From Bacteroidota bacterium (lineage in GTDB: Bacteria; Bacteroidota; Bacteroidia; Cytophagales; Cyclobacteriaceae), in contig JBCBHL010000001.1 of the NCBI GenBank assembly GCA_038525605.1, positions 1-63,724 of the forward strand: a stretch of DNA of 63,724 nucleotides, in the 5' to 3' direction. Positions 33,169 through 63,724 of this stretch are shown one piece after another. The stretch's first letter is position 1. Each line of letters begins with the position of its first letter. The notes beneath the pieces were generated by a model, which saw only the letters and a program-made list of their open reading frames with translations, did no database searches and was not told the origin of the DNA. Position numbers and translations under genes: made by a program.

Positions 33169-34524
33169 TCAAGACAGAAATGAAAAGCAACCTGGCATAC
33201 AATCATTTGCGGAATCATTTTCCAAATCATAATCAACCATCGGTATCACATAAGCCCATTTGATTCTTTCTGGTAAAATCCCACCAGCAACAGATATTTC
33301 CGCTTCACTTTTAAATGCCACTTTTCCTTCTTTTTGTTTAATTCCAGCTTGCTTATTCAACTCATTGTTTAGCGTTACCTGATCAAAAACGATATCCTCG
33401 TCAGTCAGTTCAATCATCATCAAAAGGAAGTATTGCTGGAATGCTTTATTGTCATTTTTCGTAGCTGACATACCATATATGTAATCACCAGCTGTTGTTG
33501 AAACAAAGTTGCTACTTTTATAATCACTTGTCTGATGCTTCTTTAGTTCCATAATTGTAGGTGCACCTCCGAGCTCCTCTTCAGGTGTCACCACATTCGC
33601 ATATTTGTTTCTTAATCCTACAATTGCTTTTTTAGCCTTGCTTTTGCTTTTCTGAGTCTTTTCTTCTCTAAGGCTTCCAGATAAAATGCCATTGTTAACC
33701 ATCATTCTACATTGTTGCAGGCTTAATCTGCTTTGTGATCTATGTACCAGATACCTCTCATTTTGATCTTTGTAATCATTTTTCTGAAGCTTCTTAATTT
33801 CCATTCCCTTTTCGTATAGCTCATCTTTTCCATAGTTTGAAAGTTCTTCCTTTGCTGACTTCTCAATCTGTTCGATCTTCTCGGCATAGGTCTGCATTTT
33901 AATTGGAGTATCTTTTATAGAACCATGTCTCTGAATGATCTGGTTCTTTGATATTGAATCATTGGTAAAACCTGAGACTCTTTGTATGGTACTGCCCTGT
34001 GAATTACTAGTTGATTCCTGAAGTTCTACAGTATTGAAATCATTTGCCATCCTATCAACTATCACTTCCCTTGTTGTATCAATTGAATAGCCGTTAATGT
34101 TCCTATCTCCTTTTGGTGTACCATTAATCGAGTTATCGATGGCATGGGCCACTTCATGCCTGATGTTGTAGTCACTATCCATGCCGGGCCCGAAATGAAT
34201 TTGATTCCCTTGAATTAATGCCTCTGCGTGTAGTTTGGCAGGAAAGGACGAATTATGTATTGATTTCAGCTGTGATGTATCTACACCATATTTGGCCCCC
34301 ATAGCATCTGCGATGTTTTCAAATTTTCGGGAACGGTTTGCGAAAGCAGGCGCGACCCGGGTCTCCTTTTGGCTGCTTTCACGGATCGAGTCACCGATTT
34401 TACGTTGTATTACAGTCTGTGGTCGATTGTCCCGGATAGATATAGAATGTATTTTATTCGAAGCACAATCAGATTCCTTTTGAAATCTACTTCCAATCGT
34501 GTTTATGTGACTTTTTGCTTTCAT
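33169..34524 (-). CDS. eCIS-core/DUF4157-like (variant HEVAH subtype) N-terminal domain protein. The C-terminal module has possible R-S-ExE ADP-ribosyltransferase motifs.
   Basis: 451 aa. The N-terminal block YGVDTSQLKSIHNSSFPAKLHAEALIQGNQIHFGPG...IRHEVAHAIDN is shared with the 49754-51877 protein. The C-terminal part has VHRS, FVSTT and SEAEISV in the order expected for R / STS / ExE. Confidence 0.7.
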   Translation of the reverse strand: MKAKSHINTIGSRFQKESDCASNKIHSISIRDNRPQTVIQRKIGDSIRESSQKETRVAPAFANRSRKFENIADAMGAKYGVDTSQLKSIHNSSFPAKLHAEALIQGNQIHFGPGMDSDYNIRHEVAHAIDNSINGTPKGDRNINGYSIDTTREVIVDRMANDFNTVELQESTSNSQGSTIQRVSGFTNDSISKNQIIQRHGSIKDTPIKMQTYAEKIEQIEKSAKEELSNYGKDELYEKGMEIKKLQKNDYKDQNERYLVHRSQSRLSLQQCRMMVNNGILSGSLREEKTQKSKSKAKKAIVGLRNKYANVVTPEEELGGAPTIMELKKHQTSDYKSSNFVSTTAGDYIYGMSATKNDNKAFQQYFLLMMIELTDEDIVFDQVTLNNELNKQAGIKQKEGKVAFKSEAEISVAGGILPERIKWAYVIPMVDYDLENDSANDCMPGCFSFLS

Positions 34525-34530
34525 GAATTG

Positions 34531-36192
34531 TTACTTTTTTTCATATGATTCATCGTGATATCTGGCAGTTACCCAACGAGGAACAGTTCCTTTTCTAATC
34601 GTATTGATATCTACATTTTCCAGATACTGTTCAGCCATCGAGTCACCGGGCCATTCTGAGGTTCCGGCGATCTTTAAAATCTGATCTTTTGTAAATGGTT
34701 CAAGAACAGTATAGCCAATTGGTAGCTCGTCCGGATAGTCATACAATTTGCCCCTGGTTTTTGCAACATGCATGATTTCATGATAGCTGTGATCCCTGTT
34801 TACCAATAGCTGACCCAGTGCAGCTAACCTGAGCAAAAGCCTTTCGCGATCAGAAAATTTAAAAATATCGGCCAACTGAAAGTACCAGTCGGTAGAGCCT
34901 GATAAACCAGCCCGCATGATTGCCAGTCTCTCTTCCCGGTAATCAGCCCAGGTTTTGGCTTCACCTATCTCATTCTCACCCTTTTTTTCCTGACTGCTGT
35001 CATAAACCAGTCCTTTGTCTGGTAATTCGTACCACTCCTCCCCTGGTATGTACTTCGGTTCTTTTCCTTTAGCAAGCCTTTCTTCCCTGCTACTCAACGG
35101 TGCTCTTTTACTGTCAAGTTCTTTCTTTGTAATGGCCTTTTTTTCAGATTCTAATCTGCTTCTTTTCTGCTCCAGAACTGAACCTCTTCGCGGGAGGTAT
35201 TTGTTTAATAAATCAAATTTTGAGTATTTAGCAGCTACTTTATCGTTGTTGTTGATCGCCTGCTTTCTGGAAAAGGCTGTGGAATTGATCGCTCTGTAAA
35301 CCAGGTACATTTTCTCTCTTAGATTACCACTGTAATACACTTCTTTGACGTCTTTAGCGCAAACAGCTCCTGCCTCGGAAGGATCAGGCCTTGTTTTAAA
35401 AGATTCGAATGCTTCATGCCATCCAAGAAATTTGATAATCCTTCCTACAATTAAATCTGCACCTCTTATTGCCAGACGATGAGTAAATAATCCGGCACCT
35501 AGCTTTTCTTCAAAATCTTTTGCCTGCTTCCAGTATTCATCCTGATCCCTTGCAATACTTGTTTTAGCAATTTGCGGGTTCTTTTCCCAAAGCTTTTTAT
35601 AATCCCCAGTCTTTCTTTGGATCAGTAGTTGGTTAGTACTATTTCCCTGATGAACTATGGCAGGCTCCTCATAAACCTGATTGTTGGAGTTGATCAGGTT
35701 CATTGCCTTCTCCCCCGTCACATCGGCTTCTCTTTCCAATCCAGTATCATCGTTGATCTGTACTCCTTTTTGAAACTGCAAAGTCGGTTTCACCCTTCCC
35801 TGCTTCTGTTGCACTACGTGCCATGCCTCATGAGGCAAATGTTTTTCCTGTCCCGGTCCCAGGTGAATATCTGTTCCCTGTGCGTAGGCAAGCACATTGA
35901 GTTGAATTGGTTTTGAGGAGTTGTAGTGCACTTTCACATCATCCATAGAGTAACCGGAAAGTCCTTCAATCCCTGCCTTGAGGCCGTTTGGCAGTCCTGA
36001 GTGAGAATCCCCGCTTTGCCGATTAAAGACTTGTGATCTGTGCTCATTCCTTTCCTTTGTATCCTTCAGCTGAAGCTGATAAACAGGCAATGTGCGATTG
36101 TCCTGTATATAGGAACCCCCTTGTGTGCCGTCGGACTTTTGGTGGTTTAACAGGTTACTTTTATTCTCTAATTTTTGGAGATGCGTTTTCAT
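34531..36192 (-). CDS. DUF4157 / eCIS-core domain protein with a unique C-terminal module carrying a second HExxH (HEIMH)
   Basis: 553 aa. N-terminal block GLSGYSMDDVKVHYNSSKP..AYAQGTDIHLGPGQEKHLPHEAWHVVQQKQGRVKPT. C-terminal part ...NRDHSYHEIMHVAKTRG. There is a 6-nt gap to the downstream gene. Confidence 0.8.
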   Translation of the reverse strand: MKTHLQKLENKSNLLNHQKSDGTQGGSYIQDNRTLPVYQLQLKDTKERNEHRSQVFNRQSGDSHSGLPNGLKAGIEGLSGYSMDDVKVHYNSSKPIQLNVLAYAQGTDIHLGPGQEKHLPHEAWHVVQQKQGRVKPTLQFQKGVQINDDTGLEREADVTGEKAMNLINSNNQVYEEPAIVHQGNSTNQLLIQRKTGDYKKLWEKNPQIAKTSIARDQDEYWKQAKDFEEKLGAGLFTHRLAIRGADLIVGRIIKFLGWHEAFESFKTRPDPSEAGAVCAKDVKEVYYSGNLREKMYLVYRAINSTAFSRKQAINNNDKVAAKYSKFDLLNKYLPRRGSVLEQKRSRLESEKKAITKKELDSKRAPLSSREERLAKGKEPKYIPGEEWYELPDKGLVYDSSQEKKGENEIGEAKTWADYREERLAIMRAGLSGSTDWYFQLADIFKFSDRERLLLRLAALGQLLVNRDHSYHEIMHVAKTRGKLYDYPDELPIGYTVLEPFTKDQILKIAGTSEWPGDSMAEQYLENVDINTIRKGTVPRWVTARYHDESYEKK

Positions 36193-36602: not shown

Positions 36603-38756
36603 TTACACTACTTTTTCAGGCTCCTCATGAAGTTCCTTTTTCGCCACCTCTTTTATGATATTGAACCAATTGAATTCCTCTCTTATAAATGCTTTCGATC
36701 TTCGAAATACCTCAATTGCCAGCTTAAAATCATAGTTTTTCGGCACTACATTAAATATAGTCGAGTTCAGGGATAATGGCAGATAAAGAGCAGTGAGTCT
36801 GTCCGAATAGTAAACTTTCTTCATTTCTTTTTCAGGCAAGGGGTTTTCAGTCACTTCATAATATCTCTGTGGATTGGAAACGCTGTGAAGAGAGCCTTTT
36901 TGTCCCTTATTCCGCTCATTTTTCCTAAAATACCATAACATACCATCATAGAAGCAAAGCCCGTGATTTACAAAAAGCTCTGACCATTGGATTCTGTTGA
37001 TGGTTCCCTTACTTGTTTTAGTTTGTGTGGAAGCTAAATCTTCTATATGCCCGCCTTCATACCAGGTTTGAAAAGCTGCCAAATCATAGAATTGGAAATG
37101 ATATCTGGGTGCCATGATAGAGGCAGATAACCCATCTACGGCCATAGATTCCGCATAAAGTCCTTCCCCACCTGATATGATTACTCCATTCTTCATCTGA
37201 CTCATCGCGTACTGCATAAACTCGTTCCGAAAAGTTCCGGCAACTACGAAAAATTTGAGATTGCCCTTCTTCATCGTTATCAGAGTCATGTTATCATATT
37301 GCACTCCGTGCAATACCTGGTAACCTTTCAGGTTTTTGAATGGCAGTTTTTTACCAGGTAAAAACAAGACCTTACTTCCATCTCCTTTTTCAGAAAATAA
37401 ATCGAGGGAGTTTTGAATAACATTTATCCCTTTTTCATCGTGGAATGTTTTAAAGCTGACCATCCAGGCATCATCTAAATCTGATTTTAATTCTTGTTCC
37501 AAATCGTATAGCAGGTCTGTTTCATGAACATTTAACAACGTGTGATCACTTACAAGATCGGGAATGGCAAAACCAATGCCTTCTCCATTTAGACCGGTAC
37601 TCAAGCAATCGTTCAACGCTACTTTAAAATTCATTTCTGTGATCTTCAGCACTTTTTCTGATGGTGGTTCTGCGGTCATTACGGGAAATTGAATTTCCCA
37701 ATCTTTACCTGAAAGACCCAATTGATTTCTGGCTTCTATACCATATTGCTCTTCTTGTTTTTTCTCCGTTCGTGTTGAAGGACGACCGTGTACGATTTTC
37801 CATCTGATATTTTCTGTATCTGCCTGCAAAAGGTTTATGACACTAGTTTTTCGCTGTTCATAGCTGTCAAATGCTTTTATTCCTTCAGGATTTGAAGCAA
37901 AACTATTTTCGTTTGGGTGATCTTTGTGAGGTTTGGCATACTTTTCACTTTCTTCGTCATTTTTAAAACCCCCTATATTGACATGGTTTTTTACAAATGC
38001 GTTGAGTGTTACTCTTCTGATGCCCAGGTCACTTTTCACCCGATCTACTGCTTCATATAAATGTCTGATTTGTCCTGCATCTCCCAGACCATCAGCCAAT
38101 ACTATAGTCATCAGGTTTAGTTGGTCTTCAGAAGAGTCTCGCAACCGAATAAAGAAATCCTCTACTTTTTTCTCATTCTTATTTTTCTTCTTCTTTAACT
38201 GCATAACTGCTAATCCCGTAACCGAAGGAGTAGACATACTGCTATTCGATTTTTGAGAATACTGCAGCGCCTTCTCTCCCATCACATCGGCTTCTCTTTC
38301 CAATCGAGTGTCATCATTGATCTGCAATCCTTTTCGAAACTGCAAGGTCGGTTTTACCCTTCCCTGCTTTTGTTGTACCACATGCCATGCCTCATGAGGC
38401 AGGTACTTTTCCTGTCCTGGTCCCAGGTGTATGTTTGTTCCCTGTGCGTAGGCTAGCGCATTGAGTTGCGTTGGTTTTGAGGAGTTGTAATGCACTTTCA
38501 CATCATTCATAGCGTAACCGGAAAGTCCTTCAATGCCCGATTTGAGCTGGTCAGGTAACCCGGTATTAGATCGATTCGTCCGCAGATCAGATAAAGGCTC
38601 ACCTTTTTCTCTCCTTTGAATTACCGCAGCTGCTGCACGGTTCTTTGCTGTTGCGAAGCGATTATCTTCTATTGTCCGGGCAACACCGGTTTTTTCAGGT
38701 TTTGTATCAATTGACCTATGTTGTTTATTTTTCGATTCTCCGTATGGTACTTTCAT
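36603..38756 (-). CDS. DUF4157 / eCIS-core domain protein with a unique C-terminal module of about 540 aa and unknown function
   Basis: 717 aa with the same N-terminal block (HEAWHVVQQKQGRVKPT). The C-terminal region matches no other paralog in the window. Confidence 0.8.
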   Translation of the reverse strand: MKVPYGESKNKQHRSIDTKPEKTGVARTIEDNRFATAKNRAAAAVIQRREKGEPLSDLRTNRSNTGLPDQLKSGIEGLSGYAMNDVKVHYNSSKPTQLNALAYAQGTNIHLGPGQEKYLPHEAWHVVQQKQGRVKPTLQFRKGLQINDDTRLEREADVMGEKALQYSQKSNSSMSTPSVTGLAVMQLKKKKNKNEKKVEDFFIRLRDSSEDQLNLMTIVLADGLGDAGQIRHLYEAVDRVKSDLGIRRVTLNAFVKNHVNIGGFKNDEESEKYAKPHKDHPNENSFASNPEGIKAFDSYEQRKTSVINLLQADTENIRWKIVHGRPSTRTEKKQEEQYGIEARNQLGLSGKDWEIQFPVMTAEPPSEKVLKITEMNFKVALNDCLSTGLNGEGIGFAIPDLVSDHTLLNVHETDLLYDLEQELKSDLDDAWMVSFKTFHDEKGINVIQNSLDLFSEKGDGSKVLFLPGKKLPFKNLKGYQVLHGVQYDNMTLITMKKGNLKFFVVAGTFRNEFMQYAMSQMKNGVIISGGEGLYAESMAVDGLSASIMAPRYHFQFYDLAAFQTWYEGGHIEDLASTQTKTSKGTINRIQWSELFVNHGLCFYDGMLWYFRKNERNKGQKGSLHSVSNPQRYYEVTENPLPEKEMKKVYYSDRLTALYLPLSLNSTIFNVVPKNYDFKLAIEVFRRSKAFIREEFNWFNIIKEVAKKELHEEPEKVV

Positions 38757-39074: not shown

Positions 39075-41063
39075 TTATGAATTCATGTAAATTCTCTCAA
39101 AGCTATAATCGCCCGATCCACTTTCGCTATCAATATCACTATCATTTGTTTTGCTGATCAGGCAGTTACTCAGTTGCGCAACAATATCATCTATATCCAG
39201 GCTATTTGCTTTGGCATCCTGGATAACCTTTCGTACATATTCATCTGCTTTGTATAAAGAAAAAGTGTTAATTTGAGCAATGATACTTTCTTGATCTGCT
39301 GGTCTTAAATCTCCAAACCTTAAGACGGTTTGATCTTCCGGAATTGGGTCTTCCGGTTCATCTTCTTCCAGCCTCCATTCTGCAAGTTCTTGGGGACTTA
39401 GATTGGGCCTTACATAATCCTCCGGTTGTGCTTCTATCCTTGAATCACCAAATTCGGGACCTATCCCAACAGACCACGGTATCAGTATTTGAACGCCTCC
39501 AAAGGCCAATTGCATACTTTTAATAAACTCCGGATTGTCCAATTCACCTAACTTTTTAATGATTGCTTCCACTTGAGTACCTCTTTTGGTAATATCCTCT
39601 TCCTCCAGATCATAGAAATATAGCGATCTCCAAATCCTCATGGTTATGTATTGAATCAGCTCCTCCATCATTTCCTGAGGTTTATTTCTTAGGTTGCTGT
39701 ATTGACGAAGGCTCACTGGCTGTGTTTTATCATTCGGCACATTTAAACCTATGAACACACCCGGCACATCGCTTCCGGCAGCTAACAGGTCATCACCTTC
39801 AATCACTACTCCGGGCTGCCTCAGCACCCAACGTAGGTCGCGACTCACCCTCATCCCTTCAGAATCTTTCCCTCCGGCGAATTTAGACCACCATTTCCCC
39901 CTACCTTGCTTGTGTTCAAGAAAACCAAATACATAGCCCGTATTTCTAAAATGATTCTTGTCTTGTTCAATAATGTTCGCTTCGACAACTGCATCAGCAG
40001 ACTTAGCCTTGGCTTGCCTTTCCCTATACTCGGCGCTTTGCAACTCACCTACTTCCTGAATTTCTTCCCTGCTTGTTGCTTTTCCATACCAGGTGACCAT
40101 CAAGTCCGGTATCATAGCAAGCAATCGTGTTCGAATGGGCGTTATTAACTGGTTGATGGCCTGTACTTCACGATCCGTGTTTTTACTATCAAATTTCGTT
40201 TGTACTTCATTTCTCATTTGAGGTTGTTCTGTTTCTTCAACACTCCCCAACAATCCTCCACCACTCAAATATTCGAATGCGTTTTCAGATCTTTCCCATC
40301 CTCCCGCAACTTCATTTATATGTATATGATTTCCCTTACTGCTACCATAATAATCCCAAACATCTTCAATGTACTTTTGAAAGGCAGTATTATCTCTATA
40401 ATCCGGAAGCAAATTATTCATTCTCGTCCTGAAATACTTCCTTTTCCTTATCCGTGATTTTCGCCTATTTGGTGCGTTTGTATAGATTCTACCCTGAATT
40501 ACCTCATTGCCGGTATTGTAAACCGAAGAATTAAGTTGGCGTTGCTCGCTACCGACAGATAATCTGTCCATAGCCGCCTTATTTCCCATCACATCAGCTT
40601 CTCTTTCCAGACTCGCATCATCATTGAAATTAACTCCTTTTTTGAATTGAAGTGTAGGTTTTACTCTGCCCTGCTTTTGTTGTACCACGTGCCATGCCTC
40701 GTGAGGCAGGTGCTTTTCTTGTCCGGGACCCAAGTGGATGTTTGTTCCCTGTGCGTAAGCATGAGCTTGAAGCTGTGCCGGCTTTGACGAATTGTAATGG
40801 ACCTTTACATCGTCCATCGAAAAACCGGAAAGGTTTTCAATACCTGTTTTGAGCTGATCAGGTAGACCAGCATTAGATCGATTCGTCCGCAGATCAGCTA
40901 AAGGCGCACTTTTCTCTTGTCTTTGAATCACCGCTGCTATTTCACGGTTTTTTGCTGTTGTAGGGCGATTATCTTCTATTGTCCCAGCATTTCCGGGTTT
41001 TTCAGGTGCTATGTCAAGTGACCTGTGATTTTTATCTTTCGACTCTCTGTAGGGTAATTTCAT
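39075..41063 (-). CDS. DUF4157 / eCIS-core domain protein, C-terminal family D (shared with 54335-56179)
   Basis: 662 aa. N-terminal block HEAWHVVQQKQGRVKPT. C-terminal blocks GYVFGFLEH, RWVLRQPG, VPGVFIGL and VQILIPWS match YVFGWLEH, RWILNQPG, VPGFIVGV and VQILFPWS of the 614-aa paralog. Confidence 0.8.
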   Translation of the reverse strand: MKLPYRESKDKNHRSLDIAPEKPGNAGTIEDNRPTTAKNREIAAVIQRQEKSAPLADLRTNRSNAGLPDQLKTGIENLSGFSMDDVKVHYNSSKPAQLQAHAYAQGTNIHLGPGQEKHLPHEAWHVVQQKQGRVKPTLQFKKGVNFNDDASLEREADVMGNKAAMDRLSVGSEQRQLNSSVYNTGNEVIQGRIYTNAPNRRKSRIRKRKYFRTRMNNLLPDYRDNTAFQKYIEDVWDYYGSSKGNHIHINEVAGGWERSENAFEYLSGGGLLGSVEETEQPQMRNEVQTKFDSKNTDREVQAINQLITPIRTRLLAMIPDLMVTWYGKATSREEIQEVGELQSAEYRERQAKAKSADAVVEANIIEQDKNHFRNTGYVFGFLEHKQGRGKWWSKFAGGKDSEGMRVSRDLRWVLRQPGVVIEGDDLLAAGSDVPGVFIGLNVPNDKTQPVSLRQYSNLRNKPQEMMEELIQYITMRIWRSLYFYDLEEEDITKRGTQVEAIIKKLGELDNPEFIKSMQLAFGGVQILIPWSVGIGPEFGDSRIEAQPEDYVRPNLSPQELAEWRLEEDEPEDPIPEDQTVLRFGDLRPADQESIIAQINTFSLYKADEYVRKVIQDAKANSLDIDDIVAQLSNCLISKTNDSDIDSESGSGDYSFERIYMNS

Positions 41064-44875: not shown

Positions 44876-44975
44876 CGTGTCGATCTGTTCTCAAATACAA
44901 AGTGTACCGAAATTGCGTTCCTTAGCCATCGGTGAACTGTACAAACAGACTGATTGCATGTTGCACCTTTCTCCT

Positions 44976-49722: not shown

Positions 49723-49753
49723 GGCATTCGGAAAAAAGCTGACTGTTTTAAAG

Positions 49754-54334: not shown

Positions 54335-56179
54335 CTACGAAACCTTGTTTGGCGTTTTTTTTTTTTGTATTTTGAAATCATTGGAATCAAGTGGGGCAAC
54401 CATTCCCTCTGGTAATGTATTTTTTATTCTTCCCTTTCTGTCCATTCTATTTCGGAAATCATGAAAGTCTTCCAAATAGGCAGGCTGCCTTTCCGGACCG
54501 ATTTTATGACTCAAACTCCAGGGAAATAAAATTTGTACTTTTACGGAATAAATCCTTTGCAGCAAATTGATATATTGCGCATCATTTTGAATTTGCTTAA
54601 TCGCGTCGTATTGGGTCACCATCCTTTCAGTTGGATCTTCATCGTTGTTTTGTGCATCGTGAATAAAATCCCTGAACAATTTCATCTTGATATGTTGGGC
54701 TAAATCCAGCATCATAGCTTCTGCACGATCTCCCGGCTGCTCTCTCTCCCCGATTGTTTCAAATTCTTTTAATTTAGTTTCTTCATCTGATTCATGCACA
54801 CCTACTATAAACCCAGGTACCTCGGAAGAATTATCCCTTCCCTGAACGTATTCATTTGCCATCATCAAAGATCCGGGTTGATTTAGAATCCATCTAAGCG
54901 GACGACTATATCTCATACCACCTGACATGGCTAAATTACGAATTTCGGATGCAGCAAATCTGGTAGGTCTTGGAATCATTGTATTATGTTCCAGCCAGCC
55001 AAATACATAGGCGTAATTGCCAGTGACAATATCTGTGTCAATCACATTTCCAACTGTTTCGGTATTCGTATCAAATGCCGCTGAATCTTCATACAATACT
55101 TCATCTTGCTGATTCTCACCTGTCTCCGGCACATTTGTTTCTCTATTCTTTTGCAGATCTAGCCTCTTTCGCAAGCTGTCAATTGCTCCTGCTTTGTCGA
55201 TAATTGATTTATCAACTTTATTAAAATAAAAACTGAACAATAGTTGATCCAGCATATTTATAAATCTTGTACTGATATCTTGATATATCTCATCAAGAAA
55301 CTGCAGCTCATCATTATCTTTATTATTTTCATATTCCTGCATTAGTTCTAATCTTTTATTTTTATCATTTAAGATGATCCCACTTTTAAAGACGAAGAAT
55401 GCTTTTTCTGCATTTTCCTCTGTTTCCTCGATCATCCCGATAATTCTATTAATCGTGGTATAATTCCAGACACCTCCATATCTTTTCCAGACCTCCTCCA
55501 ATAACTCATTGATCCAGGGCGTTTCTACATCGTCCCGCCTTTCAGAGACTAATTCCTTCACTCTCTCTTTAGAACGAACATAGGCAAAGGGACCATTGCC
55601 ATTTTTTATCCTTAGCTGGTGAACTGACCGTCCTGAAAAGGAAACAGCATTGAACCGTTCTGCTGCTGGCGATCCTCCGTATGATAGAGCTTTTGCCCCC
55701 ATCACGTCTGCCTCTCTCTCCAAACCAGCATCATCATTGACCGCTATCTTTCCCTGAAACTGCATAGTGGGTTTCACCCTCCCCTGCTTTTGCTGTACCA
55801 CATGCCAGGCTTCATGCGGCAGATGTTTTTCCTGCCCGGGCCCCAGGTGGATGTCTGTTCCTTGTGCATATGCAAGAGCATCTAGTTGTGCTGGTTTTGC
55901 AGAATTGTAATGCACATTTACATCATCCATTGCATAACCGGAAAGGTTCTCGATTCCGGATTTAAGTTGGTCTGGTAATCCGGTTGCGTTAGCCTTTCGC
56001 TGCAATGGTAAATTGCCATTACCCGAAGAATCCTCAATGGCATTTTTTAACTGGCGTTGAAGAACGCATTTCGGTTTGTAATCTACATATCCGGCTCTCG
56101 CCTTGCCACCTGGTTCATTCGATACTCGCAGGATTGTTTTGGTTTGTTGTTCATAGGCTTGATTAACTATCTCTTTCAT
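54335..56179 (-). CDS. DUF4157 / eCIS-core domain protein, C-terminal family D (shared with 39075-41063)
   Basis: 614 aa. N-terminal block HEAWHVVQQKQGRVKPT followed by MQFQGKIAVNDDAGLEREADVMG. The C-terminal family D blocks are listed under 39075-41063. Confidence 0.8.
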   Translation of the reverse strand: MKEIVNQAYEQQTKTILRVSNEPGGKARAGYVDYKPKCVLQRQLKNAIEDSSGNGNLPLQRKANATGLPDQLKSGIENLSGYAMDDVNVHYNSAKPAQLDALAYAQGTDIHLGPGQEKHLPHEAWHVVQQKQGRVKPTMQFQGKIAVNDDAGLEREADVMGAKALSYGGSPAAERFNAVSFSGRSVHQLRIKNGNGPFAYVRSKERVKELVSERRDDVETPWINELLEEVWKRYGGVWNYTTINRIIGMIEETEENAEKAFFVFKSGIILNDKNKRLELMQEYENNKDNDELQFLDEIYQDISTRFINMLDQLLFSFYFNKVDKSIIDKAGAIDSLRKRLDLQKNRETNVPETGENQQDEVLYEDSAAFDTNTETVGNVIDTDIVTGNYAYVFGWLEHNTMIPRPTRFAASEIRNLAMSGGMRYSRPLRWILNQPGSLMMANEYVQGRDNSSEVPGFIVGVHESDEETKLKEFETIGEREQPGDRAEAMMLDLAQHIKMKLFRDFIHDAQNNDEDPTERMVTQYDAIKQIQNDAQYINLLQRIYSVKVQILFPWSLSHKIGPERQPAYLEDFHDFRNRMDRKGRIKNTLPEGMVAPLDSNDFKIQKKKTPNKVS

Positions 56180-56279: not shown

Positions 56280-58253
56280 TCAGGCTAATGCATTTCGTCC
56301 TCTCAGAAACGTAATGGCCGCTGTATCCAGCGCTAACACTCTGGCACCACTCATTAAAGATGCTTGTCTAAAGTCAGCATTTGTCAAAATCGCTCCTGTG
56401 AAATGTCGCGTATTTAGCTTCGGCCTGGCCCTTCTCAATCTTGCCCTTGGTTCTTCGCCTACAGCGGCAGGTCGGACAGTATGAAACATAGCATTGTTAA
56501 AAGTCACATTAGTCAAATCTGCATTTTGAAAATTTACACGATATAGCTCCGCATTATCAAATATTCCTCTTATCAGTTGTGAGCTTGAAAAATTCACATT
56601 AATTATCCTACAATTGCTAAAATTCGCTCTCGTCAGGTTATCGTTAACAAATGGACCTATGGCATCTATCTGAAGACCCCGAAAATCTGAGTTTATGAAA
56701 GAAATTCCTCCCAAAACTGAATTATCTAGTAAACCTTGTGTGATAACTTGCCATGACAGATTGGCACCAGTAAGAACGGTATTACGATATATCACATTGT
56801 TCATTATGGCACCTCTTAGGTCAGCTCCAGACAGATCAGCATTATCCAGGTCGGCTCCTCTAAGGTTAGCCCACCGAAGGTCGGCCCCAGACAGATTAGC
56901 ATTACTCAGATTGGCTGTTGTGAGAGTAGTACGCCGAAGGTCAGCTCCAGTCAGATCAGCACGATGCAGGTTGGCTCCTGTAAGGTTAGTCCCTCTTAGA
57001 TCAGCCCCAGACAGAACAGCTCTACGTAGATTGGCTCCTGTAAGGTCATTGCCTTGTAAGTGAGCATTTTGTAGATTAGCATGTGCAAAATTCACATTCG
57101 GCATTTGAAAAAATGACATATTCAGACCTGGTAAACTAGCATGTGGAAATATATCGAGCATACCTGCGTGATTGGGGAACAGAAGTGTTTGATGTCTAAA
57201 CCGGGTTCCGTTTAACCAGATATTATTTAATGATAAGTTTGGGCGGTTTTGAACATTCATATTATTTCCTCTCCCAAACCAAAGTATAAATGCTAAAGAA
57301 TCCGTATCGAATCTTGCGTTATCAAAATTAGTCTGCAAATTAAATAAAACCTGGTCATCAAACTCGGAGTCAGAAAATGTTACAAACGATAAATCTGTGC
57401 TTCGAAAATCACATTGATTTAAATCGCAACTATAAAATTCACTAGTACGAATGTTCAAATTAGCAAAGTTTCTATTGTTGAATGTACATCTATGATAGGT
57501 AATGCCTTGTAGTAATGCTGGCTGAACTGCCTGCATGTTAACCCCACTCAAATCGTGACCAGAAAACCTATCTACCGGAACTGCAAGAGTAAGGGCTGCT
57601 ACGAATTGTTGTGTATTTGGATTTGCGACCCCTGTATAGTTAGTGTAAAGTTGAATCACCTCATCATCTGTTTTTTGATATCTCTGCAAAGGCATTGAAT
57701 CATTTTTGAAATCTTCGATGATCATTTGATTAATAGCACTATCAACTACAATATTTGAATTGGCAGCTCTTTTTCCCATCACGTCTGCTTCTTTCTCCAA
57801 ACCAGCATCTTCATTGACAGCTATCTTTCCCTGGAACTGCATAGTGGGTTTCACCCTCCCCTGCTTTTGCTGTACCACATGCCAGGCTTCATGTGGCAAG
57901 TGCTTTTCTTGTCCGGGTCCCAGGTGAATATTTGTTCCTTGTGCATAGGCAAGGGCATTGAGTTGTGCTGGTCTCGTTGAGTTATAATGTACTTTTACAT
58001 CATCCATTGCATAACCGGAAAGATTTTCGATTCCGGACTTCAATTGATCAGGCAGTCCGGTTCGATTAGGTTTTCGCTGTATAGAGGAATTAGTATTGGC
58101 TTTTGACTCCTCAATGTCATTTTTTAGCCGGCGCTGGTAAACAGTGGACGGGCGGTCGTCTGTAATTGTGATTGATTCCTGACTGCCAGCAACTTCTTGT
58201 TGGGTCTTCCTTTGAGCTATTTGATCATTTGAATATTCAAGTGATTCTTTCAT
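56280..58253 (-). CDS. DUF4157 / eCIS-core domain protein with a C-terminal pentapeptide-repeat domain
   Basis: 657 aa. The N-terminal block is nearly identical to that of 58301-60022. The C-terminal half has a long run of A(D/N)LxX pentapeptides (NLTGANLHRADLTGADLRRTTLTTANLSNANLSGADLRWANLRGADLDNADLSGADLRGA). Confidence 0.85.
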   Translation of the reverse strand: MKESLEYSNDQIAQRKTQQEVAGSQESITITDDRPSTVYQRRLKNDIEESKANTNSSIQRKPNRTGLPDQLKSGIENLSGYAMDDVKVHYNSTRPAQLNALAYAQGTNIHLGPGQEKHLPHEAWHVVQQKQGRVKPTMQFQGKIAVNEDAGLEKEADVMGKRAANSNIVVDSAINQMIIEDFKNDSMPLQRYQKTDDEVIQLYTNYTGVANPNTQQFVAALTLAVPVDRFSGHDLSGVNMQAVQPALLQGITYHRCTFNNRNFANLNIRTSEFYSCDLNQCDFRSTDLSFVTFSDSEFDDQVLFNLQTNFDNARFDTDSLAFILWFGRGNNMNVQNRPNLSLNNIWLNGTRFRHQTLLFPNHAGMLDIFPHASLPGLNMSFFQMPNVNFAHANLQNAHLQGNDLTGANLRRAVLSGADLRGTNLTGANLHRADLTGADLRRTTLTTANLSNANLSGADLRWANLRGADLDNADLSGADLRGAIMNNVIYRNTVLTGANLSWQVITQGLLDNSVLGGISFINSDFRGLQIDAIGPFVNDNLTRANFSNCRIINVNFSSSQLIRGIFDNAELYRVNFQNADLTNVTFNNAMFHTVRPAAVGEEPRARLRRARPKLNTRHFTGAILTNADFRQASLMSGARVLALDTAAITFLRGRNALA

Positions 58254-58300: not shown

Positions 58301-60022
58301 CTAATCCTCAACGTTGATAGTCCTCACCAGATCGAAGACTGCTAAAGCGAAAGGTTTTAATTTTGAAGGAGGCACATCATTCCTGAGTTTGCGCAGTTCA
58401 ATAATAGCTCCTGCTCTGTTTTGTTCTGTTTCGGAATCTCCTATATCTGAGGTGTTAGTCATTCCAAACTCCCCTGTTCTGTTAGTTTGACCGTAACCGT
58501 CCAAAGCAGTAGGCCAAATGCTCTGCAAATCTTGTCCATTACTCAATAAGTTCAGTAAGTTTCTAATAGTCATTTGATTTCTGTTAAGGCCATCAGGAAC
58601 TTTCGGAACAATTAATTGATTTTTAATCGCTGGAGGTATTCCGTTGATTACCGCTATTTCACCAGGGTTGAGGGAGTTATAAAACGGGAGTAACCCCATT
58701 CTAAAAAGGAATGGCATATAATATTTAATAACAGAACTATCCTCCGGGTTTATTGCTCCACTTCCACTAGCTTCTGCCATACCGTAGAGTATTGCCATAA
58801 AACTTATCGTCTTTTCTGATGCATTTACCCTCTGACCAAACTCTTTTGCCTTTTTTAATCCATTAGCCCAGGCGCTCCTAAATGGTTTTTGATCTTCCTT
58901 TTGACTCCAGCCGATGGTATTTGTATACTTTGTCAGTGGCTTATCTAGTAGTTTACCCAAATATGTTTTGTAATAAGCCCTCGTACCTAATCTCTTATAA
59001 GTTCTGCCTTTACCCTTTCTGAATGGGGCTTTGGTTAATCGATCGATTAAATAATGGATCTTTTCAAACTTAACACCTACAGTTGCCTGTGGGTGAAAAT
59101 GAACTGAACCATTTACATCGAAAAATAGAGTGGTAGTTGGAAACGTAACCCCTCCACTTATATAACTAGGCAACCAGGCTAGTGACCCTGGGTGCAAATT
59201 GGTCACTTGTTGCTCATGTCTGATGCCCTTCGTAAACGTTTCGACTTCAGTCATAATCTCTTCGAGTCGTCTACGCCCAGGGTCAGTCTCATCAACTGCT
59301 ACTGTAATGATTTCCAACTCATCAAATGAATTCCCATAATCTCCTTCTATCTTAAAGCCATCGGCCCGAGCTAGCTCGTTCTCTTCGGTAGTACCCATCC
59401 CAGCATCGTAATGGTTTGAGTTAAATGTCACGCTATCATAAGCCTGGAACTCAAACCCAATTTTCCGTTGAATGGGTCCATTAGCGGTATTACTTTCTTT
59501 AAGCTGTGCAGGATTATCAGTCTTAAGCCGCATTGCCTTATCACCCATTACATCTGCCTCTTTTTCTAATCCAGCATCGTCATTGATCTTGACTCCTCTT
59601 TTGAATTGAAAAGTTGGCCTTACCCTTCCCTGCTTTTGTTGTACTACGTGCCAGGCTTCATGTGGGAGGTGCTGTTCCTGTCCGGGTCCGAGGTGGATAT
59701 TTGTTCCTTGTGCATAGGCAAGGGCATTGAATTGTGCTGGCCTGGCTGAGTTATAATGAACATTTACATCATCCATTGCATAACCGGAAAGGTTTTCGAT
59801 TCCGGACTTCAGTTGGTCAGGCAGTCCGGTTTGATTAGGTTTTCGTTGTATAGAGGAATTAGTATTGGCTTTAGACTCCTCAATGTCATTTTTTAGCCGG
59901 CGCTGATAAACAGTGGATGGGCGGTCGTCTGTAATTGTGATTGATTCCTGACTGCCAGCAACTTCTTGCTGGGTCTTCCTTTGCGCTTTTGGGTCATTTG
60001 AATATTCAAGTGATGCTTTCAT
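58301..60022 (-). CDS. DUF4157 / eCIS-core domain protein with a C-terminal module showing GS/amidoligase-like motifs (divergent relative of family C)
   Basis: 573 aa. N-terminal block HEAWHVVQQKQGRVRPT. C-terminal motifs IGFEFQAY, ELEIITVAV, SVHFHPQATVG, YMPFLFRMG and AIIELRK. Confidence 0.8.
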   Translation of the reverse strand: MKASLEYSNDPKAQRKTQQEVAGSQESITITDDRPSTVYQRRLKNDIEESKANTNSSIQRKPNQTGLPDQLKSGIENLSGYAMDDVNVHYNSARPAQFNALAYAQGTNIHLGPGQEQHLPHEAWHVVQQKQGRVRPTFQFKRGVKINDDAGLEKEADVMGDKAMRLKTDNPAQLKESNTANGPIQRKIGFEFQAYDSVTFNSNHYDAGMGTTEENELARADGFKIEGDYGNSFDELEIITVAVDETDPGRRRLEEIMTEVETFTKGIRHEQQVTNLHPGSLAWLPSYISGGVTFPTTTLFFDVNGSVHFHPQATVGVKFEKIHYLIDRLTKAPFRKGKGRTYKRLGTRAYYKTYLGKLLDKPLTKYTNTIGWSQKEDQKPFRSAWANGLKKAKEFGQRVNASEKTISFMAILYGMAEASGSGAINPEDSSVIKYYMPFLFRMGLLPFYNSLNPGEIAVINGIPPAIKNQLIVPKVPDGLNRNQMTIRNLLNLLSNGQDLQSIWPTALDGYGQTNRTGEFGMTNTSDIGDSETEQNRAGAIIELRKLRNDVPPSKLKPFALAVFDLVRTINVED

Positions 60023-60034: not shown

Positions 60035-61135
60035 TTACGATTTCTGCAAATTCACTGTAGAGGTCAAAGAATACAGTTCCTCGTCCAGCAGGCCATCTAA
60101 AAAAACGTTGAGTCCATTGGCTATGGCAGCTGTCACCGTATGGTCACCAGCACTCAACAGCTTCTGAATATTCTCCGGATCGGCATTAGACATGTCCGAA
60201 TCGTAATCTCTCGCACTAGTAGGGACATCTATCCTTTTGTAATTAATTTGTCCTTCTTCCCTTACTGATTTAAAAATCGCATCCATCTGATAGGTCGTCG
60301 TATCCACACCGCCATCCATCATGATGTCGGGGATATATTGCGCCCATTTCAGCAAACTCCATCGACCACTTATTTTAGTCCTTTTCAATGAAAATTGACC
60401 TCCACCAGTACCGATAGAAAGCATATACATATCCTCCGCCCTTGGTTCCTTAATATTTCTGTCTTTAAAATGGTGATTCCTCGCCTCTGCATAAGCGCAT
60501 AATGCAGGACTATTGGCAAACACACCCCCATCAATGTTGCGCATCTCTCTTTCTTCAGCATCCGCAATATTCGCTTTATTCCTGATAAAAGCAGAAGGAA
60601 AATATGTGGGAGCAGCAGAGGTAGATCTGAGAACATCTTTCAAAAGAAACTTTCTTTTACGCCGATCATCTGTGCTGTTGAAGAAAAAAGCAGAGCGACT
60701 GTTAATGTCGTATGTGGGTATAAGGCATGGCTTGAGCAATTCATGCATGTATGTATTCCCAAACTTTATTTCAAGCAGCTGCTCCAGATGCTTTGGACTA
60801 AAAGCAGTTCCATTGAGCAATCCCCATAATCGCCTGAACTCGGGGATTTTTGACTTGTTGAAAATATCATAGCCTTCTTCTACAAATAGATCTAAAGCTT
60901 CAGAAGCACTAAATTTTGCTTTTTGAGGCTGTTTCTCATCGGGCATTAGATACAATGCAGCCAGAATTCCACCAATACTGGTCCCTGTAATGAAATCAAA
61001 GTGATTCGCGATAGTAGTTCCCGGAGCTTTCTTCTGTAAATATTGTTCCGCATATTTGACGACTGTTGCCGGTATGATCCCTCTTATCCCTCCTCCATCA
61101 AGAGACAGGATTCTAATCTTCTTTTTATCTTTCAT
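60035..61135 (-). CDS. Patatin-like phospholipase
   Basis: 366 aa with oxyanion-hole motif DGGGIRG, nucleophile elbow GTSIGG (GxSxG) and catalytic Asp motif DGGVFANSP. It has no DUF4157 domain. Gaps to the neighbouring genes are 12 nt and 7 nt. Confidence 0.9.
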   Translation of the reverse strand: MKDKKKIRILSLDGGGIRGIIPATVVKYAEQYLQKKAPGTTIANHFDFITGTSIGGILAALYLMPDEKQPQKAKFSASEALDLFVEEGYDIFNKSKIPEFRRLWGLLNGTAFSPKHLEQLLEIKFGNTYMHELLKPCLIPTYDINSRSAFFFNSTDDRRKRKFLLKDVLRSTSAAPTYFPSAFIRNKANIADAEEREMRNIDGGVFANSPALCAYAEARNHHFKDRNIKEPRAEDMYMLSIGTGGGQFSLKRTKISGRWSLLKWAQYIPDIMMDGGVDTTTYQMDAIFKSVREEGQINYKRIDVPTSARDYDSDMSNADPENIQKLLSAGDHTVTAAIANGLNVFLDGLLDEELYSLTSTVNLQKS

Positions 61136-61142
61136 GAGTATA

Positions 61143-62528
61143 TTAGTTTAATAGTATGCCTTCTTTTTGTAGCTCTCTTCTAATAGCAGTTTCCAGATTC
61201 TGAAGTGTAATTGTTGTTTTTCCTTGCGTAATGGCATTCAAAGTACACTTCCTCACCACATTCATCATCAGACCACCTGATATTTCAAACTTTTCTGCGA
61301 GTTTCCACAGATCAACTTTGTCATCTAGTGGCATTTTGGAAGAGAATGACTGACTCCAAAGCTTATGTCGCTCCTCTACTCCAGGCATTCTAAACTCAAC
61401 CATCGACTGAAACCTTCGCGAAAACGCCTCGTCGATGTTATCCATGAGGTTGGTTGCCAATAAAACTACACCATCAAAATCTTCAATCCTTTGCAACAGA
61501 TATCCGATTTCCTGATTACCATAGCGATCGTTTGCACTACTGACCTGTGTCCTTTTTCCAAATAGTGAATCAGCTTCATCAAAAAATAATATCCATCCAT
61601 GTTTCTGTGCCTGGTCAAAGACTTTAGCCAGGTTCTTTTCGGTTTCGCCGATGTATTTGGAAACGACCATACTGATATCAACCCGGTAGACTGATTTATG
61701 AGTCACCTTGCCCAATAATGCCGCAGACATGGTTTTACCTGTTCCCGGAGGGCCATAGAAAAGACTTTTATAACCCGGTTTCAGTCTGCGTCCCAGCCCG
61801 AAATCATCCATAATTACCTGCTCGTGCTGTACCCAGTCTTTTATTTCCTGCAAGCTTCTGGCAGTAGATTTAGAAACTACCAGGTCGTCCCATTCCAAAC
61901 CGGACTGTATCCGCTGAGCGGGAAAGTCAGCACTGAATACAGCCTGATAGGTCTTTCCGATGAGCAATTGCTCGGAATACTCTCTTGAAACCATCCATAC
62001 CCCACTATTGAGTGGCATTCCGGACCTCTGCCCAAATCGATCGATGATCCCCAGACTGATCAGTTTGAAGTCACCTGCAAATGCTTTCTGATACCTCAGT
62101 CTTTTTGACAGATCGCCTCCTGCCACCAGAAAAAGTGCAGTATCTACAGTGGCAATAAGTCCATTGTGTCCTTCCAGTAACACACCGCCAAACTCACTAA
62201 ATCTGCGGTCGTAATCTTTGTTTTTACTCAAAAGAATGTCAAGTGCCTCCGGTTTTACATGCGGAATAATTGCCAGGCAGAGCAATAGCCTTTCATCAAA
62301 ACCCAAGGCGTTTTTGCTAACAAAATCAGCATAGGGATCTTCTTTGTCCTTTAACCCAGGAGGTGGAAGTTCATAGATAGACTGGTAAGGTGTTTCATGA
62401 TTGAAATAGAGTGCGAGCCTGATGTGTAAAACTTCCTGAAACCATGCTAGCTCATGACCAATTGCAGTGGCCTTTTCATTGCTATCTGCTAAAATTCTAT
62501 CGCTATTTGTCTCTGTTTGACCGATCAT
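61143..62528 (-). CDS. AAA+ ATPase, Afp15/Pvc15-like (contractile injection system-associated)
   Basis: 461 aa. An N-terminal domain of about 230 aa (ELAWFQEVLHIRLALYF) is followed by one AAA+ module with Walker A GPPGTGKT and Walker B ILFFDEAD. The CIS link rests on its context next to DUF4157 genes and the tape-measure-like gene. Confidence 0.75.
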   Translation of the reverse strand: MIGQTETNSDRILADSNEKATAIGHELAWFQEVLHIRLALYFNHETPYQSIYELPPPGLKDKEDPYADFVSKNALGFDERLLLCLAIIPHVKPEALDILLSKNKDYDRRFSEFGGVLLEGHNGLIATVDTALFLVAGGDLSKRLRYQKAFAGDFKLISLGIIDRFGQRSGMPLNSGVWMVSREYSEQLLIGKTYQAVFSADFPAQRIQSGLEWDDLVVSKSTARSLQEIKDWVQHEQVIMDDFGLGRRLKPGYKSLFYGPPGTGKTMSAALLGKVTHKSVYRVDISMVVSKYIGETEKNLAKVFDQAQKHGWILFFDEADSLFGKRTQVSSANDRYGNQEIGYLLQRIEDFDGVVLLATNLMDNIDEAFSRRFQSMVEFRMPGVEERHKLWSQSFSSKMPLDDKVDLWKLAEKFEISGGLMMNVVRKCTLNAITQGKTTITLQNLETAIRRELQKEGILLN

Positions 62529-62546
62529 TTCTCCTTAAATTTCATA

Positions 62547-63724
62547 TTACCATTCTACTACTAAAACCCTATCCATCCAGGGTAAACTAACCGTATGATA
62601 GCCCCAGGGCAGTTTCTGCAGCAGAATATCATACGTTTCTCTCTGCACCTGCAACAACCAGTGATTGTCCCGAATTCTCAGTGAGGCTGGTCTTTCAAGA
62701 TAGGAGGTGACAAATCCTTTCACAGACATGTTTTTCCATTGTGGCACCTGTCTGATAATAGCCTTAAGCAGGCCATCGACTATCTCCTTGTCAGAATCTG
62801 AGATATCGGTGATCCGGACTGCCTCTTCCATAGGAATCCCACATAAGACCTTTGCCAGCGGTAGCTGTCCCTCAAAAATTTCCGTTTCTTCCTGCCCACA
62901 AATAAACTGAAGCATGCAGGCTGCTTTTTGCCTTGCCGGGATGTCTTTAAACACCTGGTCTTCTACCAGCCCGAGATTCTCAAAAAACCTAGCCAGAAAA
63001 GGCCATAACAAGACGAGTCCTGCATTAGACACTGAAATGAAATCCGTATCATTAAAGTCAGACAAACCTGCCTGTATTGAGCTGCTTTTGAAGGCCTGCG
63101 CTTTGTGAATTTCCCAATCTATCTGATGGACATATTCTGCCAGCGGAATTAATTTAGTCTTCACTAATTCCTCAATCCGTTTTTTTGCCTGCTGATCAGC
63201 ATCGCCCTGACTGCTCTGACCGTTTCCTCTGATTCCAGTCAATAAAACTGCATTTTCAGCATTTGACTGTAACTCCTGCAACAGGTTTTCGAGTTTTTGT
63301 AATGATGCCGATGAAACTCCCTTGAAAGCAGATCCTGAGATTTTATTGGCTAGATGCTGAAAGAAATGCTGCCATAGCTCAATCTCCTTGTTCAATGACA
63401 AATAATACCTGATCAGACTCTTTATGCTCTTCACTGACTTCAGCACAGTACTTTCCCGTTTTACCGAATCAACTCCCAGCAAATCGAGTGTTGATGTGCT
63501 GTAAATGCTTTTCATTTGCAAAAAGGATCGCGGTGGCTGCTGAGCCATCGGTAACTGATTGAAGATATTAAATATCAGCGCTTTTACAATTTCTCTATGC
63601 GATGGTACCTTCGCTAGCTTCGGCCCTGAAAACTGTATTTGCTTTTTGACTTGTTCTATGAGTTTCTGAACATCTACTAAGGATATTCCTGCGATCAGAT
63701 AGATACTTTTGATGAGCTGTTCTT
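62547..63724 (-). CDS. Hypothetical protein, probably a contractile injection system tape-measure-like (Afp14-position) protein. The 5' end lies outside the window.
   Basis: The track ORF starts at 63548, but my translation of 63549-63724 in the same frame (EQLIKSIYLIAGISLVDVQKLIEQVKKQIQFSGPKLAKVPSHREIVKALIFNIFNQLP-MAQ...) has no stop, so the gene is truncated by the window edge. The blocks NAGLVLLWPFLARFFENLGL and LPWGYHTVSLPWMDRVLVVEW match my memory of proteins found just upstream of the eCIS ATPase. The assignment is unverified. Confidence 0.45.
   Translation of the reverse strand, partial: EQLIKSIYLIAGISLVDVQKLIEQVKKQIQFSGPKLAKVPSHREIVKALIFNIFNQLPMAQQPPRSFLQMKSIYSTSTLDLLGVDSVKRESTVLKSVKSIKSLIRYYLSLNKEIELWQHFFQHLANKISGSAFKGVSSASLQKLENLLQELQSNAENAVLLTGIRGNGQSSQGDADQQAKKRIEELVKTKLIPLAEYVHQIDWEIHKAQAFKSSSIQAGLSDFNDTDFISVSNAGLVLLWPFLARFFENLGLVEDQVFKDIPARQKAACMLQFICGQEETEIFEGQLPLAKVLCGIPMEEAVRITDISDSDKEIVDGLLKAIIRQVPQWKNMSVKGFVTSYLERPASLRIRDNHWLLQVQRETYDILLQKLPWGYHTVSLPWMDRVLVVEW

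Follow-up and report, generated by a model that had tools for sequence, protein, structure and literature searches.

Within the 63,724-nucleotide stretch of DNA analyzed here (the window; contig JBCBHL010000001.1 of a bacterium of the phylum Bacteroidota), positions 33169 to 63724 most likely form the cargo (effector) end of a phage-tail-like contractile injection system (CIS) in a Bacteroidota chromosome, with cargo proteins loaded by their N-termini. Every long open reading frame (ORF) in this region lies on the minus strand in the ORF listing of the window. Read in the direction of transcription, the region consists of a partial tape-measure gene, a gene for an AAA+ ATPase, a patatin gene, and twelve genes that share an N-terminal module, with a single cytochrome P450 gene inserted among the twelve. 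A preliminary description of this DNA had reported that all genes from 63724 down to 33169 lie on this strand and follow this order. The ORF listing confirms both observations, and Pfam matches agree with the order.

The partial tape-measure gene (62547..63724, minus strand) encodes a protein that matches PF19268 (CIS_TMP) over profile positions 193-463 with 222.9 bits, against a cutoff of 27.8. Tape-measure proteins determine the length of the tube. The frame is open up to base 63724, and the N-terminal part is cut by the end of the window. The ATPase gene (61143..62528, minus strand; PF00004, 97.9 bits) begins 18 nt past the end of the tape-measure gene. Its product belongs to the classic Cdc48/VAT-like clade, with VAT and Cdc48 as the best solved relatives, and its best match in a metagenome scan is only 45% identical. 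Scans of genome and metagenome collections with the tape-measure protein as query, aimed at the source contig, returned nothing. By position, this ATPase would be the counterpart of Alg15, Afp15, and Pvc15 and a putative cargo loader or unfoldase.

The closest homologs of both proteins are found in Aquimarina and Flavobacterium sp. J27, and the closest CIS loci are flavobacterial, mostly from Aquimarina. ATPase homologs in these two genera scored 556-678 bits and are encoded between tape-measure and DUF4157 genes, while the corresponding tape-measure proteins scored 230-260 bits. In the locus of Aquimarina sp. SS2-1, Baseplate_J, a Gp10_C/collar fiber-like gene, and a gene for an 824-aa protein lie upstream of the tape-measure gene. 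We read the region as a cargo end because of the CIS_TMP match, the adjacent AAA+ ATPase gene, and the recurring order of tape-measure, ATPase, and DUF4157 genes. The same proposal in the preliminary description is therefore supported, including by the Baseplate_J and fiber-like genes found upstream in relatives.

The module common to the twelve genes spans ~165-170 aa. PF13699 (eCIS_core, or DUF4157; curated gathering threshold of 22 bits) matched all twelve proteins, with ten scoring 33.1-41 bits and two falling just below the threshold (g33169, 19.9 bits; g49754, 19.5 bits). This comparison had been suggested in the preliminary description, which had also singled out the same two proteins as divergent. 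They carry HEVAH where the other ten carry HEAWH. When aligned to a profile of the ten canonical N-termini, the HEVAH variants gave an hhalign probability of 97.9% (E 3.9e-13), and the alignment extended from the motif in the far N-terminus through the HExxH core. A module HMM run on the 63.7-kb window matched exactly these 12 ORFs and no others, with g33169 at 43.7 bits and g49754 at 29.7 bits. Judged by these profile comparisons, the two variants are homologous to the other ten.

Each protein is built from a hydrophilic stretch of ~60 aa, a DUF4157 core of ~100 aa, and a variable C-terminal domain of 280-555 aa. Hydrophilicity is highest in the first ~60 residues, and in most of the proteins these are also the richest in disorder-promoting residues. 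They contain a DNRPxxxxQRK motif in all twelve proteins. This motif also occurs in 72 of the 128 DUF4157 ORFs in a sample of related loci, which comprised the 79 best of more than 600 places in species-representative genomes that encode this DUF4157 subfamily (~20 kb each). An AlphaFold2 model of the module (residues 1-184 of g47125, from a 13-sequence alignment) assigned residues 1-60 a pLDDT of 41-56. These are followed by a compact alpha/beta core at residues 61-130 (pLDDT 88-95) that ends in the HExxH helix, a low-confidence loop, and a helix at residues 145-159 that bears an invariant Glu. Residues H116, E117, H120, and the downstream E148 were invariant over 13 diverse sequences, including a distant DUF4157 protein. 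The combination of HExxH and Glu is the pattern of a minimal zincin, and by this motif the core is a putative metallopeptidase.

It is already established that DUF4157, or 'PVC-metallopeptidase', can form the N-terminus of proteins with polymorphic toxin domains at the C-terminus, encoded beside an extracellular CIS (eCIS) (Zhang 2012; Geller 2021; Xu 2022; Danov 2024). DUF4157 was first recognized in polymorphic toxins, as an N-terminal domain named 'PVC-metallopeptidase' (Zhang 2012, as cited in PMC8213781), and later as a highly eCIS-specific core domain that is fused or adjacent to toxins (Geller 2021, PMC8213781). The same three-part architecture is found in Cgo1 and Cgo2, the cargo proteins that fill the tube lumen of AlgoCIS (PMC8894135; preprint 10.64898/2026.05.27.728243). 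For both, the disordered N-terminus is needed for loading and DUF4157 is dispensable, with Alg15 proposed as unfoldase or loader (PMC8894135; 10.64898/2026.05.27.728243). By analogy with this Algoriphagus system, the disordered N-terminus of the proteins described here would be the loading signal, and the length of the tube that receives them would be set by the tape-measure protein. Contraction of the sheath would then expel the cargo into a target cell, in which the C-terminal domain would act. The DUF4157 core would probably be accessory, serving in processing, in refolding, or in keeping the toxin inactive, and not as the loading signal.

Several features tie the locus to AlgoCIS. Both lie in Bacteroidota CIS clusters with a tape-measure gene and an AAA+ ATPase gene, both encode proteins with a disordered N-terminus, a central DUF4157, and unrelated C-terminal domains, and the C-terminal domain of g45118 has a second HExxH, as predicted for Cgo1. 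In contrast, AlgoCIS has two cargo genes compared with twelve here, and the cargo genes here follow the ATPase gene in one long same-strand array that is broken by the patatin and P450 genes. The likeness to Cgo1 and Cgo2 is one of described architecture, and loading of the present proteins into particles is predicted. A similar resemblance extends to eCIS-associated toxins (EATs; Geller 2021, PMC8213781; Danov 2024, PMC11297309), which carry DUF4157 at the N-terminus and a variable toxin domain at the C-terminus and are encoded at the 3' end of CIS operons. Most of these likewise lack another annotated domain and an immunity gene. They differ in copy number, as twelve occur in a single run here. 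The order of tape-measure (afp14), ATPase (afp15), and payload (afp17/18 or pvc) genes is also that of the antifeeding prophage (Afp) of Serratia and the Photorhabdus virulence cassettes (PVC), where loading of the payloads uses an N-terminal signal and is aided by the ATPase. Unlike the proteins described here, those payloads lack DUF4157. The present lineage is also a different one (Bacteroidota), and no terminator/cap gene separates the ATPase gene from the payload genes.

A number of points weigh against the interpretation of this region as the end of an N-terminally loaded injection system. No sheath, tube, spike, or baseplate gene lies within the window, the remainder of which is housekeeping; such genes would be located beyond 63724, as the preliminary description proposed. 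The source contig appears to measure 77,570 bp, with ~13.8 kb outside the window, such that the structural block may be incomplete even there. The ATPase matched generic AAA models only, in libraries that hold no eCIS-specific model. As particle-associated, loaded toxins, the twelve proteins are candidates, put forward by analogy. Low pLDDT and amino acid composition are proxies for disorder. A PDB sequence search with the N-terminal module found no match. For the DUF4157 model, Foldseek gave no significant solved match in the PDB (best E 0.9-2, including YbeY), and the label 'metallopeptidase' therefore derives from the motif. Finally, mutation of the HExxH of Cgo1 left its toxicity unchanged (PMC8894135; 10.64898/2026.05.27.728243).

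Downstream of the module, the proteins fall into about eight unrelated classes of C-terminal domain. All-vs-all BLAST of these domains returned two families only, C-type (n = 3) and D-type (n = 2). The C-type domains occur in the fourth, sixth, and eighth cargo genes: g52101 (52101..54203; eCIS_core, 34.5 bits), g47125 (47125..48840; 34.9 bits), and g42905 (42905..44875; 36.9 bits), all on the minus strand like the rest of the array. Their pairwise comparisons gave E 2e-34 for g52101 and g42905, E 7e-38 for g52101 and g47125, and E 1e-53 for g42905 and g47125 (36% identity over 345 aa). The D-type domains, from the third gene, g54335 (54335..56179; 36.1 bits), and the ninth, g39075 (39075..41063; 37.2 bits), share 25% identity over 374 aa (E 1e-25). 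When a D-type profile was searched against 5.8 billion proteins, one partial ENA sequence was the sole match besides the window's own g39075.

The array opens with g58301 (58301..60022; 34.1 bits), whose C-terminal domain belongs to a wider DUF4157-linked family (40 homolog clusters, mostly Bacteroidota DUF4157 proteins). The C-terminal domain of the second gene, g56280 (56280..58253; 34.5 bits), consists of pentapeptide repeats (Pentapeptide, 155 bits) and represents the one class with a Pfam match. A HEVAH module and a C-terminal domain of its own characterize the fifth gene, g49754 (49754..51877; 19.5 bits); homologs of this domain occur in DUF4157 proteins of three related loci (L049, L004, and L015). 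The seventh, g45118 (45118..46491; 41 bits), has a short C-terminal domain with a second HExxH (HELTH) and a weak match to WLM (E 0.005), and could encode a zincin protease; a sequence search of the PDB found no relative of it. The tenth, g36603 (36603..38756; 33.1 bits), ends in an orphan domain of 552 aa with no match in Pfam, NCBIfam, or PDB sequences. In the eleventh, g34531 (34531..36192; 35.7 bits), the C-terminal domain carries a second HExxH (HEIMH) and is related to that of a DUF4157 protein of Aureivirga marina (L037; E 3.7e-11), with no match in a PDB sequence search. The last gene of both the array and the island is g33169 (33169..34524; 19.9 bits), which joins a HEVAH module to another orphan domain.

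These results bear out the D-type pair and the pentapeptide repeats of the preliminary description, as well as its view that most of the C-terminal domains are undescribed. Sequence searches of the PDB found no match for the C-type, the D-type, and four orphan domains, and beyond the pentapeptide repeats and the weak WLM match, the C-terminal domains had no match among Pfam, NCBIfam, or PDB sequences. The C-type family itself had been put at three to five members. Three were recovered by BLAST. A fourth, g58301, is probably a remote relative: family profiles of the g58301-type and C-type domains aligned with an hhalign value of 79.7% (E 1.5e-5) and four co-linear motifs, while thin profiles gave no significant match, and comparison with shuffled sequences was borderline (3 of 500). 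The proposed fifth member, g49754, was rejected, as its hhalign E values were 0.54 and 0.23 and its HMM score was no better than those of shuffles.

Comparison of the paralogs revealed how the array was assembled. The ten canonical modules are 55-85% identical to the reference g58301 over ~170 aa, and their DNA constitutes a ten-member repeat family (73-85% identity over 300 nt). Across a 97-codon core of the ten copies, the median proportion of synonymous differences was 0.73, which is saturated, compared with 0.11 for non-synonymous differences. Because synonymous sites are saturated and non-synonymous differences are low, the copies are old, and each is under strong purifying selection. By this measure, the array is not a recent amplification. 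Similarity of both DNA and protein ends ~480-490 nt into each gene, immediately after the LEREADVMGxKA helix.

Superimposed on this old divergence are mosaics of much higher identity. g56280 and g58301 share 88-98% DNA identity from the start codon to ~+400 nt, with unrelated sequence upstream and downstream, and g56280 and g54335 share 80-98% over +224 to +474. The 5' module of g56280 is thus a mosaic of the modules of its two neighbors. Likewise, g34531 and g36603 share 86-94% DNA identity over +230 to +480. Between neighboring paralogs, identity falls sharply at ~+400 or +480 nt. The N-terminal module is thus exchanged between paralogs, as would be anticipated for a common delivery adaptor that can be combined with different effectors. 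Taken together, these patterns show that the array grew by old duplications of whole modules and by attachment of unrelated C-terminal domains at a fixed junction, and that the 5' modules are still undergoing gene conversion. This constant boundary of module and effector, taken with natural swapping of modules, suggests a fusion point for heterologous payloads in engineered particles.

Upstream regions are also shared by some of the genes. Those of g42905 and g47125 are alike over more than 150 nt, and the likeness extends to g52101 for ~40 nt directly ahead of the start codon. g36603 and g39075 have a common 5' leader from -62 that is 78-86% identical. The palindrome ACCAGATGATACTGGT belongs to this duplicated leader and occurs at 38785-38800 and 41092-41107, ~30-45 nt before the start codons of g36603 and g39075, respectively; it could be a regulatory hairpin or binding site.

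The same cargo architecture would also suit a machine that remains anchored in the cell and fires on contact, a type VI secretion system of subtype iv (T6SSiv) as in Amoebophilus or Aureispira, instead of a released particle. Aureispira, a member of the Bacteroidota with T6SSiv, has DUF4157 proteins as candidate effectors, other Bacteroidota clusters resembling BIS/T6SSiv also hold DUF4157 cargo candidates, and no sequence feature of the window separates release from anchoring. We nevertheless consider an anchored machine unlikely. The closest loci encode Gp10_C/collar fiber-like and Peptidase_S74 fiber genes beside the tape measure, of the kind that free particles need for target binding, and AlgoCIS, the sole experimentally studied system with this exact cargo architecture, is extracellular.

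The conserved 5' modules with unrelated 3' ends, the recent gene conversion between modules, and the upstream regions duplicated together with cargo genes are features that a reservoir of interbacterial polymorphic toxins would also display, in which expression is confined to one or a few genes and the others serve as silent cassettes to be recombined in, like rhs or cdiA orphans. True orphan cassettes, however, lack the 5' delivery part, whereas all copies here are complete ORFs that each have a start codon and a full N-terminal module of their own. Such a reservoir is also difficult to reconcile with strong purifying selection on all ten canonical modules despite saturated synonymous divergence, or with the lack of immunity-sized ORFs after the cargo genes, and we regard it as very improbable. 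Least probable of all, to a degree that we give it almost no weight, is that the twelve are secreted or surface metallopeptidases, such as substrates of the type IX secretion system (T9SS), that lie beside injection genes by chance. HExxH is present in all twelve proteins, as this explanation would have it. The preliminary description had allowed for such T9SS or surface proteins, and both a signal peptide and a sorting domain were sought. There is no Sec-like N-terminal hydrophobic signal in any of the twelve (hydrophobic runs within the first 45 aa reach at most 5 residues), and neither Pfam nor NCBIfam detected a Por_Secre_tail or other C-terminal T9SS sorting domain. Moreover, the module is a statistically eCIS-specific domain, and its linkage to tape-measure and ATPase genes recurs in many genomes.

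As cargo genes of an injection system, the twelve stand out by their number. They occupy a single 27-kb run, compared with 1-5 DUF4157 genes in the related loci examined. The 79 best related loci hold 1-4 each. Three further loci (L083, L084, and L085, from a Bacteroidota metagenome-assembled genome, Mucilaginibacter angelicae, and a JGI metagenome contig, respectively) have five in total, with tape-measure, ATPase, and one DUF4157 gene followed by a convergent block of four more that is headed by a TPR protein. At least three genes in each of these loci have g58301-type C-terminal domains. In a close relative represented by a 4608-bp ENA contig (k147_4550866; L082), three DUF4157 genes are consecutive, and these include an ortholog of the C-type gene g47125 (P0002; 78% DNA identity). 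Because three such genes lie in a row in this relative, dense arrays may be a property of the lineage.

A survey of 1,249 genomes provides a wider frame of reference. DUF4157 was present in 51.5% of predicted eCIS toxins, and 983 of 1,130 DUF4157 eCIS toxins had no other annotated domain (Danov 2024, PMC11297309). The richest genome named, that of Moorena producens, encodes 18 predicted EATs, ~9 of which have DUF4157 (Danov 2024, PMC11297309). The array described here is more than twice any comparable one found, extreme in number and not new in kind. The claim in the preliminary description that it is unusually large is upheld on both comparisons, with related loci at 1-5 and the richest surveyed genome at ~9 DUF4157 toxins. 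The locus thereby extends the current picture of eCIS without changing it, fitting the AlgoCIS model and differing in scale. As AlgoCIS, the only such system studied in detail, loads two cargos, a 12-cargo locus would be a natural test case for cargo selection. It raises the questions of how a single tube and a single ATPase select from many cargos, whether single particles differ in their cargo, and what role the conserved DNRPxxxxQRK plays in an otherwise disordered loading sequence.

The C-type domains merit closer description. The family is rare: a search of 1.84 billion representative proteins yielded 14 representative clusters, and most proteins retrieved from these clusters have the same N-terminal module. 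An AlphaFold2 model of the g47125 C-terminal domain (window positions 47128-48309) was confident (pLDDT 89.2, pTM 0.85). Foldseek found no significant match for it in the PDB, where the top entry was the carboxylate-amine ligase YbdK (E 0.2, TM 0.17-0.19). In a viral structure library, the sole significant neighbor was an uncharacterized Terrestrivirus protein (A0A3G4ZRS2; E 2.7e-5, TM 0.39-0.45), with a weak match to a phage 'COOH.NH2 ligase type 2' further down the same list. Invariant residues of the family occur in the motifs G-x-E-I-E, E-x-V-T, Q-x-(N)-x-G, KN-x-x-P-x-L-x-KT, and G-V-x-E-x-R (the parenthesized Asn is conserved in ≥90% of sequences, not in all), and several of them sit on predicted beta strands. 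One homolog also had a sub-threshold match to ACD (PF16671; 12.7 bits against a cutoff of 27).

Together, the invariant residues on strands, the YbdK and phage ligase matches, and the sub-threshold ACD match point to a glutamine-synthetase-like ligase as a reasonable though unproven conjecture for the C-type domains. Like the YbdK and ACD ligases (GS/GCL fold), they have Glu-x-Glu, Glu, Gln/Asn, Lys, and Glu-x-Arg on beta strands, which may link them to the ACD/glutamine synthetase fold. Unlike those enzymes, they form a rare sequence family of their own, and none of the matches is significant. A validated toxin with an ACD domain, EAT13, is flanked by DUF4157 genes (Geller 2021, PMC8213781). 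A more specific proposal, which we hold to be possible though doubtful, is that the three C-type proteins (or four, with the g58301-type) are unrecognized ATP-dependent carboxylate-amine ligase toxins, GS/ACD-like, that would modify or cross-link a protist target. A eukaryotic (protist) target is suggested because the significant structural relative is a giant-virus protein, and the hosts of Terrestrivirus are assumed to be amoebae. Overall, the locus offers about eight unrelated effector domains, one of them annotated, and among them is this rare family with a confident model and a giant-virus relative.

The pattern of a classical cognate immunity gene directly downstream of each toxin is absent from the array, where several of the gaps between cargo genes measure only 6-131 nt. 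According to the preliminary description, the spaces between the toxin genes contain no same-strand ORF of ≥60 aa. This is not strictly true, since three minus-strand ORFs (112, 66, and 64 aa) occur in the gap at 48841-49753. These overlap or adjoin an array of 21-bp repeats and do not look like immunity genes. On neither strand does any other gap between cargo genes fully contain an ORF of ≥60 aa. From the lack of immunity genes, the preliminary description had argued for eukaryote-directed cargo. That step is weak, as most eCIS toxins with experimentally demonstrated antibacterial activity also lack immunity genes (Geller 2021, PMC8213781), so that little about the target follows from their absence here. 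Eukaryotic targets are weakly hinted at by the giant-virus relative of the C-type domain and by the pentapeptide-repeat effector.

The 21-bp repeats form a degenerate tandem array of ~18 copies (49240..49680; 65% matching), detected by Tandem Repeats Finder and a repeat search, within the 913-bp gap 48841-49753. Parts of its flanking sequence recur at 46686-46934 and 44878-45063, in each case upstream of another cargo gene. No counterpart of the array or its flanks exists in the 79 related loci, and as far as can be told the array is not part of the cargo system. The 112-aa ORF (49155-49493, minus strand) that overlaps the repeats would encode xEKxxCx heptads and a C-terminal hydrophobic helix. 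It was considered as an immunity or membrane protein and set aside, given an in-frame stop that breaks the repeat-coding frame just ahead of its start, the fact that all frames are open across the repeats, and the lack of a counterpart. Scans for regulatory elements were similarly unproductive: promoter-like sites in a sigma-70 scan, which does not cover Bacteroidota promoters, were fewer than in shuffled sequence, a terminator scan found no minus-strand terminators between genes, and an inverted-repeat search returned only chance-level pairs, with no sign of an invertible switch.

Two genes of the island lack the shared module. The patatin-like phospholipase gene (60035..61135, minus strand; PF01734, 93.6 bits) is separated by 7 nt from the ATPase gene and by 12 nt from the first cargo gene. 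Its product has neither the loading N-terminus nor DUF4157, and the catalytic domain starts at residue 8. Against NF041079 (CBASS_lipase) it scored 178.5 bits over the full length, below the 200-bit cutoff, and no CD-NTase cyclase gene lies beside it, its neighbors being the ATPase gene and a DUF4157 cargo gene. By these sequence criteria, the protein resembles CapV and is not a member of CBASS. A patatin homolog was found in one of the 79 related loci, that of Aureivirga marina (L037), next to a DUF4157 gene. The patatin could be a trans-acting effector or a factor for lysis of the producer. In the latter case, a CapV-like patatin co-transcribed with the ATPase gene may be a built-in lysis factor that releases the particles. 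The cytochrome P450 gene (41275..42648, minus strand; PF00067, 280 bits) is set off from its neighbors by 256 nt on the upstream side and 211 nt on the downstream side. The enzyme is of an ordinary P450 class (best solved relatives 7wzl, CYP97, CYP3A, and BM3), carries no loading module, and is not visibly linked to the system. It is probably a passenger or accessory gene.

Below 33169, the window continues as ordinary chromosome, with a SerA-like dehydrogenase fusion (plus strand), a beta-lactamase-fold protein, a respiratory operon, and a histidine kinase. The fusion gene (30814-32733, plus strand) joins a HAD-phosphatase, a D-2-hydroxyacid dehydrogenase, and an ACT domain in a SerB-SerA-like arrangement. 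The respiratory operon (11689-28568, minus strand) encodes a complete alternative complex III and caa3 cytochrome oxidase, with CtaA and CtaB, a pairing of operons typical of Bacteroidota. These housekeeping genes mark the chromosomal border of the island, at which no shift in GC content was seen. Just past the last cargo gene, a 63-aa ORF (32807-32998, minus strand), in which a 38-aa core containing four Cys comes after MLKNIKNLQDAKAVTKKEQKQINGG, resembles the precursor of a Bacteroidota GG-leader bacteriocin or RiPP. The ORF is adjoined by a strong bidirectional hairpin at 32755-32789.

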